Origin: a virus
Strand: one strand, 5' to 3'
Virus record (IMG/VR): IMGVR_UViG_3300034272_001354
Span: 1-64,000 of that record
Length of the DNA stretch: 64,000 nucleotides
The notes below the pieces were generated by a model, which saw only the letters and a program-made list of their open reading frames with translations, was not told the DNA's origin and did no database searches. The translations under genes and the position numbers were made by a program. Shown here piece after piece: positions 60,999 to 64,000 of the stretch. Each line of letters starts with the position of its first letter. Position 1 is the stretch's first letter.

Positions 60999-61053
60999 TG
61001 ATATTTATTTTAATAATAAATATAATTTTATTTGGATTTATCCAAAAATGTAT

Positions 61054-61061
61054 TATCTTTG
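61054..61061 (+). promoter_or_regulatory. Bacteroidota-type promoter of tmRNA
   Basis: TATCTTTG with TTTG at 61031. Confidence 0.7.
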
Positions 61062-61075
61062 TGGTATCAAAATAT

Positions 61076-61471
61076 GGGGGTAAAATGGTATTGACTGGCA
61101 TATCTACTTATTTGGGGCACGTAGTGAGAAGTTTCCTATCACTTAAATCTATGGATGACAAAATTATAAATGGCAACATTTTAAACAAAATGGCTCTAGT
61201 AGGTCTTGTACGTCAAGACGAGCTTGTGAACGTAGCGTAAGCAAACACACATTCGGGCCGGTGAGCATTACGCCTAGGAACAGAAGCTTTTACAAAGGTG
61301 TGGTACCTATCCGAAAAGGTACAAGTGGAGGATTAGTTCTCAATAAACCGAACCACTCAAAAATAAGGGAATTGTGAAATTTCGGATTGTTAGCTTAAAC
61401 AATGTCCTAAACGTGTAGTCCTGAACACTTAGGGTGAGCAACACGAGGCTTCGAAGCCTCTACCTCCACCA
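61076..61471 (+). ncRNA. ssrA: tmRNA
   Basis: 5' GGGGGTA pairs with 3' TACCTCC-ACCA including G3:U70; GTATTGAC D-like region; TTCGAA T-loop; ATAAAT|GGC resume context; tag ORF 61172-61240; smpB nearby. Confidence 0.92.
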
Positions 61472-62323: not shown

Positions 62324-62761
62324 CTATTTCAAGTCCCTTTTCATATCTCTTTCAATATCCCGAGATTTAATACTATCTCGTTTATCGTGGAGTTTTTTTC
62401 CTTTGGCGAGAGCAATCTCCATCTTAACCAATCCGGTGTCATTTATGAAGACACGATAAGGAATGATGGTTGTCCCGTTTATTAACTCACGTTCCAACTT
62501 ATTTAGTTCTTTTTTCTTGGCCAATAGTTTTCTATCTTTAACTGTTTCATGGAATGACCCATAACCATAATCGGAGATGTTCATTCCCTTTATAAACAAT
62601 TCCCCATCATTAAAATAACAATACCCTTCAGATATGGAGACCTTTCCTTGACGGATGGACTTCACCTCTGAACCAACTAATTTGATTCCCACAATTAGGG
62701 TTTCTAAGAATGAATACTCAAACTTGGCTTTCTTATTGACTATGTTAATTGATTTTTTCAT
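62324..62761 (-). CDS. smpB: SsrA-binding protein SmpB
   Basis: NKKAKFEY, GIKLVGSEVKSIR, RKLL, AKGKKLHDKR; ATG at 62761. Confidence 0.95.
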   Translation of the reverse strand: MKKSINIVNKKAKFEYSFLETLIVGIKLVGSEVKSIRQGKVSISEGYCYFNDGELFIKGMNISDYGYGSFHETVKDRKLLAKKKELNKLERELINGTTIIPYRVFINDTGLVKMEIALAKGKKLHDKRDSIKSRDIERDMKRDLK

Positions 62762-62793: not shown

Positions 62794-62827
62794 AAAAAAA
62801 GGTGTCACATTTCTGTAACACCTTTTT
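62794..62827 (-). terminator. Terminator of the large ncRNA
   Basis: AAAAAGGTGTTACA-GAAA-TGTGACACCTTTTTTT. Confidence 0.85.
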
Positions 62828-63714
62828 GGCTAATACGATGAGAATACTCGTGTTATTAAGAATCTTCGGAAGGATTATTGTTTCCCTTCTTTTCCACCAT
62901 CTTTTGAATGGTAATCCTCAGTGACAATTGGTTAGACCAATTACTCCTTGAGATATCATCTACTCTCTTATTATTCAACTCTCTTCAACCTTGCGGGCTG
63001 ACTCCGGATTCGACTCCGTAGAGGTTTTTCGTAAGAATACATTCTGACTTGCGGTCATCCTGTGCAACGAACGGCTCGTTACTATGTAGTCACCTTGTCG
63101 ATGATACCTGACAGACACTTTTGCTTATGTATCTTTTTAGTTTTACTTAAAATGTCCTATAAGTTAATTGTGTTGTGGATGTGTCCAAGTAGAGGTCTGT
63201 CGTAAGCTTCGTTATCTTTTGAACAACAAAATACTAATCTACTCGGTAGAGTGTCCCCACTCTCATATTTTAAGATTACTTCAAACTGACATCTTGGTAG
63301 ATGTTTCGTAAGGTTAGTAGCGACACCACTCGTTCTCTAACTTACCTTTCGGTTTTAAGTCCCCTTTGATATTGGAATCCGTAATTATAAGGTTGGATGA
63401 CCCTATTTCTCACATAATCCCTATCGGTTATTCTTGTTGGTGTTCCCACCTCAACCTGACGACCCACATCGCCCGGTCACCCAACCACTTTCTCTAAAGC
63501 GTTGCCCTCAATACTGAAGGTCAGGTGATATCCGACTTGTATACTCGAGCTCCCTTTCAGAAGCCGCAGAACCAATAACACTAATGATTCCACTTTATCC
63601 CGGTTTCCCGGTTTATTTAAGGATGATATACCACCCATTATCGTTTCTTACATCACCGAAGTGTGTAATGGATAATCTAAAATTTCTAAGAACGTTTAAG
63701 GTTTCCCTCAATTG
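62828..63714 (-). ncRNA. Large (~0.9 kb) structured ncRNA, GOLLD-like (family assignment tentative)
   Basis: No ORF of 60 aa or more, raised GC, own promoter and terminator, many hairpins with UUCG/GNRA loops, adjacent to tRNA-like genes. Confidence 0.75.
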
Positions 63715-63719
63715 TTTTA

Positions 63720-63749
63720 CAAAGATAAGTGATTTTTTTCATTTGTCAA
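63720..63749 (-). promoter_or_regulatory. Promoter of the large ncRNA
   Basis: TTGACA (63749-44) ... TATCTTTG (63727-20). Confidence 0.75.
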
Positions 63750-63787
63750 GCACTTTATAAAACTTTTTTTTAATTTTTTTTTATTTG

Positions 63788-63878
63788 TGGTATCGGCGGG
63801 GTTCGAACCTGCGGCACAGAGTCTTTCGTTACTCTTGCTCTACCAAGGAAGATAAATCTTCCACTGAGCTACAATACC
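63788..63878 (-). tRNA. Aberrant tRNA-like RNA (hairpin inserted in D-loop, 8-nt anticodon loop; no amino acid assignable)
   Basis: GGTATTG/CGATACC-A acceptor, GCTC/GAGC D-stem, AGAGT/ACTCT stem with loop AACGAAAG, GGTTCGAACCC T-arm. Confidence 0.75.
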
Positions 63879-63889
63879 ATGTAAAAAAA

Positions 63890-63964
63890 ATGTGGGTGTA
63901 TGCTCTACCATCTGAGCTACGGATAAATCCGGAGGGATTTGAAACCTCGACACGACACCCACAC
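63890..63964 (-). ncRNA. Circularly permuted tRNA-like RNA (YrlA-like topology)
   Basis: 5'-GTGTGGGTGT-CGTGTC-GAGGTTTCAAATCCCTC-CGGATTTATCCG-TAGCTCAGATGGTAGAGC-AT-ACACCCACAT. Confidence 0.75.
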
Positions 63965-64000
63965 TAATCTTTCAATATTTTTATGAACTTTATTTCTTGT

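Follow-up and report, generated by a model that had tools for sequence, protein, structure and literature searches.

GOLLD RNAs are among the largest non-coding RNAs of bacteria and phages, and the structure of the cage that they form has been solved. The Rfam family RF02032 goes back to sequences from a Lactobacillus brevis prophage and from Lake Gatun (Weinberg et al., 2009). The GOLLD env-38, from a marine metagenome, was found by cryo-EM to be a 14-mer RNA-only cage (Kretsch et al., Nature 2025, PMC12286853), in which the linker J13/15 is disordered and located inside the cage and a kissing contact between L20 and J13/15 acts as an intermolecular bridge. Both the definition of the family and its solved structure concern a free-standing RNA (PMC12286853). 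According to a review, the 3' domain of a Streptococcus GOLLD alone gives variable stoichiometries (8, 10 and 12), and the literature describes tRNAs embedded in J13/15 of mycobacterial GOLLDs. Here, we analysed a stretch of 64,000 nucleotides, hereafter the window (positions 1 to 64,000 of the IMG/VR virus record IMGVR_UViG_3300034272_001354), near the end of which an original prediction made from the letters alone had placed a GOLLD-like RNA.

Identity of the RNA

The window RNA matches the whole RF02032 model (model positions 1-416 of 416; 62835-63246, minus strand) with 306.5 bits (E 8.8e-87), twice the gathering score of 150, so that the guess of a GOLLD-like RNA was correct; the model itself is restricted to the 3' 416 positions of GOLLD. 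No other large-RNA family was matched between 62400 and 64000 in Rfam at E values up to 1, the intron, RNase P, ROOL, OLE and HEARO models included. A coding reading was rejected, as reading frames of the RNA strand reach at most 53 aa, in line with the predicted lack of an ORF. The GOLLD gene spans about 925 nt of the minus strand (~63715 to ~62792) with both domains present, and the predicted 921-nt RNA has a minimum free energy of -257.8 kcal/mol, compared with -221.3 +/- 9.2 for shuffled sequences (z = -3.98). Its dense helices and its own promoter and terminator, conserved in relatives, support the highly structured and independently transcribed non-coding RNA that had been proposed, and it is a typical member of the known GOLLD family, from a lake-derived branch. 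Its features and those of its surroundings are collected in Table 1.

Among the proteins encoded in the window are a major head protein, a portal protein and a large terminase. The contig measures 77 kb, an estimated 26% of the genome. Of two complete relatives, one has 308.6 kb, terminal repeats included, and the other has 318 kb; both carry a single GOLLD with a convergent tmRNA 1-2 kb away, and tmRNA and smpB are both kept beside GOLLD in these complete relatives of ~310 kb. The phage SmpB is 51-60% identical to cellular SmpB proteins, nearly all of them from Bacteroidota. We are confident that 62796-63749 is the sole GOLLD gene of a jumbo phage of ~310 kb which most likely infects lake Bacteroidota, and that the RNA would be cage-forming, driven by a host-type promoter and led by a boxA-like word.

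Table 1. Positions of the GOLLD gene, its structural elements and its neighbours (window positions unless marked as contig or L002).
Feature	Position	Strand	Remarks
Clp/Hsp100-type protease ATPase, 681 aa	56215-58260	+	phrog_4871, 804.8 bits; near the tmRNA/SmpB pair
tmRNA	61076-61471	+	50.3 bits (gathering score 47); convergent; promoter 61032-61061
SET-domain protein, 130 aa	61906-62298	-	Pfam SET, 52.6 bits; between smpB and tmRNA
smpB	62324-62761	-	Pfam SmpB, 160.8 bits; own TAnnTTTG promoter 62795-62766, directly past the GOLLD terminator
Intrinsic terminator	62796-62827	-	14-bp stem, GAAA loop, U-run
GOLLD conserved 3' domain (ring domain)	62835-63246	-	whole RF02032 model
Contact L27 x J24/26	62894-62892 with loop 62842-62844	-	covarying; matches solved contact by position
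L22 pseudoknot (L22 x J17/22)	62948-62946 with loop 62934-62936	-	covarying; matches solved contact by position
Further pairing	63094-63089 with 62920-62925	-	covarying
Linker J13/15	63117-63184	-	variable, A/U-rich; unaligned among relatives; low-scoring in Rfam alignment
Contact J13/15 x L20	G63124-C63123 with G63052-C63051	-	covarying (CG 62, GC 35, AU 9); matches solved contact by position
Pseudoknot closing the linker	63201-63195 with 63116-63110	-	99.7% canonical; covaries
Outer stem, first 3'-domain hairpin	63246-63238 with 63193-63185	-	99.8% canonical; covaries
GOLLD 5' domain (cap domain of solved cage)	63247-63636	-	~20 helices
GAAA loop	63350-63347	-	L11a by position
7-bp contact, 5'-domain loop x linker start	63468-63462 with 63174-63180	-	83-99% canonical
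Leader stem AUUAUC/GAUAAU	63637-63676	-	63676-63671 with 63642-63637; encloses length-variable UUCG hairpin
boxA-like word	63683-63693	-	GTTCTTAGAAA; GTTCTTTGAAA in most relatives and in Bacteroidota rrn leaders
boxB-like leader hairpin	63696-63711	-	UUGAGG-GAAA-CCUUAA; immediately ahead of boxA
Promoter	63720-63749	-	TTGACA 63749-63744, N17, TATCTTTG 63727-63720
tRNA-like gene, 92 nt	63787-63878	-	Rfam tRNA, 37.5 bits; D-loop hairpin insert, 8-nt anticodon loop
Permuted tRNA-like RNA resembling YrlA	63878-63975	-	RF02553, 40 bits; model positions 1-114
Second tRNA-like gene, ~115 nt	contig ~64045-64150 (L002 ~1046-1151)	-	just beyond the window; normal acceptor stem and T-arm, long insert
T4 Rnl1-type RNA ligase, next to stand-alone P-loop kinase (AAA_33)	contig 66253-67688 (L002 3254-4689)	-	ligase 68.2 bits

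Homologues and covariation

Three pattern scans of IMG/VR with conserved 5'-domain words found this two-domain RNA at a minimum of 198 loci, 161 of them near full length. Dropping sequences at least 92% identical to one another left 106 non-redundant homologues, which share 57-91% identity with the window. GOLLD RNAs with these two domains are, as the numbers show, very common among large freshwater phages. A distant BLASTN search against phage records (INPHARED) gave two matches, in phages that are both huge and uncultured (635 and 642 kb); each has a full GOLLD that can be aligned to the window across both halves.

The consensus fold of the 106 sequences (MAFFT L-INS-i and RNAalifold) comprises 36 helices and 230 pairs, 95% of them canonical. 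Its 5' domain, between 63640 and 63247, is of the P1-P13 type of env-38, with 119 covarying pairs. These pairs are canonical in 95.9% of cases, compared with 36-40% when the partner is slid by 1-3 columns and 78% when the columns are shuffled; cells changed on both sides number 2338, versus 250-405 (slid) and 648 (shuffled). Helices of the 3' domain reach 86-100% canonical pairs, compensatory ones among them.

The hairpins named in the original prediction lie on the minus strand at the positions that it gave, and all but the UUCG hairpin treated below can be scored in this consensus. CCGG-GAAA-CCGG (63611-63600) is a consensus helix with 100% canonical pairs, compensatory changes occur at 4/4 pairs of GGUG-GGAA-CACC (63450-63439) and at 6/6 pairs of AGAGUG-GGGA-CACUCU (63263-63248), and the consensus helix ACC-GAAA-GGU (63353-63344) matches in position L11a, a conserved GAAA loop in the env-38 structure. 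The recurrent CAAAA loops (63211-63227 and 62897-62911) are two Rfam-conserved hairpin loops (model positions 1-62 and ~336-356), namely L14 and, by mapping, L24, and the CGCAA loops (63046-63056 and 62986-63000) are two further conserved ones, L20 and L21b by mapping; stem numbers (L, J and P) were assigned by inference from the text of the structure paper.

The env-38 sequence was taken from the supplement of the structure paper (PMC12286853) and compared with 63640-63247 by eye. Blocks common to both are AAAUAAA with a GAAA hairpin and GGAUAAAGUGGAAU behind it, UCUGCGG and GGUGGUG, to which can be added GAGCUYGAGUA..CAAGU..GAUAUCA and GUUGAG..GGAA..CAAnAAGAAUAAC..AUAG. With such long blocks in common, the window 5' domain is of the solved type. 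Sequence elements of the env-38 bridges are also present in the window RNA, that is, the CAAAA loop (L14, A-minor bridge) and the palindromic UCGA (L21a) and GC (L21b).

Linker and tertiary contacts

An AT-rich linker near 63120-63175 had been thought to split the RNA into two halves. The variable linker exists and, as in the rest of the family, is poorly conserved and follows the first 3'-domain hairpin (63184-63117). However, this stretch is part of the Rfam 3' model and comes behind the first hairpin of that model, so that it does not mark where the 5' and 3' domains meet, which is at ~63247.

Mutual information, computed for every pair of alignment columns and APC-corrected, brought out the pairs outside the nested fold that are given in Table 1. 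Covariation backs five tertiary contacts, three or four of which map onto contacts of the solved structure. Covarying pairs anchor the linker at either end (63180-63174 with 63462-63468, and 63124-63123 with 63052-63051). In the 7-bp contact between the 5'-domain loop and the linker start, two positions show two-sided changes and a third alternates between GU and AU.

Promoter, terminator and leader

The TTGACA promoter predicted on the minus strand was found in place, 17 nt from TATCTTTG, and transcription would start around 63716-63714. TAnnTTTG is the -7 promoter box of Bacteroidota. A TTG-N17-23-TAnnTTTG site stands upstream of GOLLD in 62 of the 87 non-redundant loci among those listed, and the window promoter is kept within its own clade. 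The TAnnTTTG box is also found ahead of rrn leaders in Bacteroidota genomes, and the contig has 38 such promoter sites, including those that precede smpB, tmRNA and the Y-like RNA described below. At the other end of the gene, the strong terminator that had been announced, a 14-bp stem followed by a U-run, is conserved in four relatives (L005, L015, L016 and L017).

The original prediction had passed over a 5' leader between the promoter and the RNA, in which a boxB-like hairpin stands before a boxA-like word. The word of the window, which the five relatives closest to it share, agrees with GTTCTTTGAAA at 10 of 11 bases, the single change being T to A. The 9-mer GTTCTT(T/A)GA occurs in 59/81 GOLLD loci among those listed, versus 0/81 for the reversed word, and in 38 of 52 loci 26-28 nt separate the boxA-like word from the -7 box. 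A hairpin with 4 bp or more lies in the 25 nt preceding boxA in 50/80 leaders (5/80 after shuffling), formed by 29 distinct stems.

For comparison with rrn leaders, four Bacteroidota genomes were reached via the SmpB search (a fifth gave no 16S match). In six of their seven rrn leaders the same 9-mer precedes 16S by 80-130 nt and shares its strand, the seventh having GTTCATTGA in its place, and most of these leaders have a hairpin and a TAnnTTTG promoter ahead of the boxA word. One rrn leader, for example, reads GCUUGA-AAAG-UCAAGC AAAA GUUCUUUGA, compared with CAGGA-AAAG-UCCUG AAAC GUUCUUUGAAAA in GOLLD leaders. Between promoter and structured RNA, GOLLD leaders carry the hairpin-preceded boxA-type word of the rrn leaders of the host phylum, with one change in the window. 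The boxA of the phage lambda nut site also reads ...CUCUUA. Our search of the open literature for GOLLD in connection with antitermination or boxA returned nothing relevant.

It could be argued that the word and its hairpin are a promoter-proximal remnant or a product of sequence bias, without a role in antitermination. The copy in the window departs from the consensus, and the 9-mer also occurs elsewhere in loci L020-L219 (50 times in 734 kb, on both strands, compared with 17 times for the reversed word), an excess that may mean that other phage RNA operons, such as tRNA arrays, carry the same leader. We nevertheless regard this explanation as somewhat unlikely in view of the reversed-word control, the regular spacing from the -7 box, the covarying hairpin ahead of the word, the identical arrangement in rrn leaders of the host phylum and the resemblance to lambda. 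The boxA leader probably makes GOLLD transcription resistant to Rho.

Downstream of the boxA-like word, the hairpin CAC-UUCG-GUG (63663-63654), another element of the original prediction, is present and recurs in relatives with altered stems; it was assessed by visual comparison, as this length-variable insert (54% canonical) cannot be scored in the global alignment. RNAalifold also proposed a pairing of the leader with the 3' domain (63692-63686 with 62950-62944), 88% canonical compared with 78% for slid partners. We do not claim it, since both words are conserved and hardly ever change on both sides, and loop L22 is another covarying partner of the 3' word.

Genomic neighbourhood

Co-oriented tRNA neighbours are a family-wide trait of GOLLD. 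Among the matches listed, tRNAs flank GOLLD in ~29% of loci per side, most often tRNA-Met: a tRNA ends at most 300 nt upstream in 49/169 loci and starts at most 300 nt downstream in 46/161, all of them co-oriented. The window RNA shares both the phage or prophage location and the co-oriented tRNAs that characterize the family.

Two tRNA-like genes lie directly upstream of the window GOLLD. The call of tRNA-Pro (tgg) that ARAGORN made on 63787-63878 is forced. Each of the two odd tRNA-like units (63787-63878 and contig ~64045-64150) closes with the same A-rich spacer, AAAAAAAAATTAAAAAAAAGTTT, behind which a TTGACA...TTATCTTTG promoter comes next. The 92-nt gene and the adjacent Y-like RNA share one promoter, and no terminator separates them from GOLLD. 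Read from 63975 to 63878, this Y-like RNA presents, in permuted order, a T-arm, a sealed 4-bp stem and a D-arm inside a long closing stem, an order that fits the YrlA model; its 40 bits stay below the RF02553 gathering score of 69, so that we describe it as resembling YrlA rather than as a family member. It is conserved upstream of GOLLD in ~18 loci among the matches listed. A gene for Rsr/TROVE was found neither in the contig nor in the two complete relatives and is present, far from GOLLD, in a relative of 483 kb; the Y-like RNA, if it is a Y RNA, would therefore need a host Ro protein. Further upstream, the Rnl1-type ligase and the P-loop kinase, which look like a tRNA repair set, lie between GOLLD and an island of 13 tRNAs, on the same strand.

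These neighbours raise the possibility that GOLLD serves in tRNA handling and not as a general cage, being a scaffold co-transcribed with tRNAs and tRNA-like RNAs in order to store them ('inhibited storage'), shield them or deliver them. Besides the flanking tRNAs across the family, the uninterrupted run from the tRNA-like RNAs into GOLLD, the tRNA island with its repair genes and the tRNA-bearing linkers of mycobacterial GOLLDs would all be in keeping with such a role. Yet a tRNA embedded in the linker, or anywhere within the GOLLD RNA, was seen in 0/198 loci among the matches listed, ~70% of loci, taking one side at a time, lack a tRNA within 300 nt, most GOLLDs, that of the window included, have their own promoter, and phage RNA genes may simply cluster. 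On balance, we consider a role confined to tRNA handling unlikely.

On the downstream side, smpB follows in 14/198 GOLLD loci and tmRNA is present in 21/198; among the matches listed, either is nearby solely in the window's own phage clade. Because this neighbourhood is clade-specific, the translation-related role that the original prediction had derived from the position of GOLLD next to smpB and tmRNA remains speculation. That the GOLLD stretch would be a long structured 5' leader, acting in cis on the smpB message, is hardly credible: smpB does start 35 nt past the GOLLD terminator on the same strand and follows GOLLD across the clade, but the 14-bp terminator and a separate TAnnTTTG promoter lie between the two, smpB is missing downstream of GOLLD in most of the family, and the family is known as a free-standing RNA. 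The SET-domain protein encoded between smpB and tmRNA has a lysine methyltransferase fold, which is unusual amid phage translation-RNA genes.

Occurrence in metagenomes and RNA libraries

DNA sequencing runs that contain the GOLLD stretch come from lake-water and freshwater metagenomes, and about half of its sampled words are present in six metatranscriptome runs. Contigs from four of these runs, belonging to four studies, cover 62837-63646, several of them free of mismatches; such contigs show presence in RNA libraries, not strand, ends or level. The same contigs from RNA libraries, which may contain DNA, also cover the tmRNA. Their cover stops near 63646, leaving out smpB, the tRNA-like genes and the leader at 63647-63716; cover that is missing from contigs is uninformative on transcript ends and leader processing.

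Proposed working and significance

In the reading that we favour, a boxA-led and cage-forming GOLLD, the host RNA polymerase would start at the TAnnTTTG promoter, and the leader hairpin and boxA-like word would recruit host antitermination factors of the Nus type used for rRNA. Antitermination would allow the long untranslated RNA to escape Rho and to be made in quantity, as for rRNA. The RNA would fold into its 5' cap and 3' ring domains, and its conserved loops would link copies into a closed cage made of RNA only, with the variable linker turned inward (14 copies in env-38). Cage formation by the window RNA would follow from its homology to one solved relative. As a working guess, held with low confidence, the cage may hold or shield translation-related RNAs during infection.

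A bolder version of this scenario, quite improbable in our estimation, would have the GOLLD of Bacteroidota jumbo phages made like rRNA, the leader loading a Nus complex that would also guide folding and cage assembly, and the cage, together with neighbouring stable RNAs, shielding translation RNAs against host RNA-cutting defences. The neighbouring set would then comprise the Y-like RNA, the tRNA-like RNAs, the tRNA island, tmRNA/SmpB and Rnl1 with its kinase.

The window locus brings nothing new on the fold of GOLLD. What it most usefully adds is a large set of sequences for covariation, the leader and an RNA neighbourhood specific to the clade. The 106-sequence set independently recovers contacts mapped onto cryo-EM bridges. 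The rRNA-style leader offers a testable route to GOLLD synthesis and suggests a practical means of expressing the RNA in a Bacteroidota host. Finally, the neighbourhood of the clade, with its Y-like RNA, tRNA-like RNAs, SmpB, tmRNA and RNA repair genes, suggests candidates for the cargo.

Comparison with known systems

ROOL (RF03087) is likewise a large ornate phage RNA found near tRNA islands, and it forms an RNA-only cage with an inward disordered linker; in contrast to this general likeness, its sequence and fold are unrelated to those of GOLLD, and Rfam gave no ROOL match here. The GOLLDs on which RF02032 was built are, like that of the window, phage-borne, adjacent to tRNAs and of lake metagenome origin, and the window matches the model over its full length. 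They include a prophage of Lactobacillales, whereas the window belongs to a jumbo phage of Bacteroidota.

The leader shares with bacterial rrn leaders (promoter, boxB hairpin and boxA, with Nus antitermination) the order of promoter, hairpin and GTTCTTTGA-type word; word and order are also seen upstream of Bacteroidota 16S. Unlike rrn leaders, that of the window has a phage RNA as its cargo, a single promoter and a word with one change.

The closest described relative remains env-38. Whereas env-38 follows a tRNA-Met, the window GOLLD has its own promoter, and compared with the env-38 construct the window RNA has ~75 extra nucleotides at its 5' end (63715-63641), which hold the hairpin, the boxA-like word and the variable UUCG hairpin. 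L21a reads GUCGAAU (UCGA) in the window, in contrast to CGCAA in env-38. Both domains are nevertheless homologous, the 3' domain via the Rfam model and the 5' domain via the shared blocks, and both RNAs have a variable linker. The env-38 contacts kept in the window RNA are the CAAAA of L14, L20 x J13/15, the L22 pseudoknot, the L27 pairs, the GAAA of L11a and the palindromic loops L21a and L21b.
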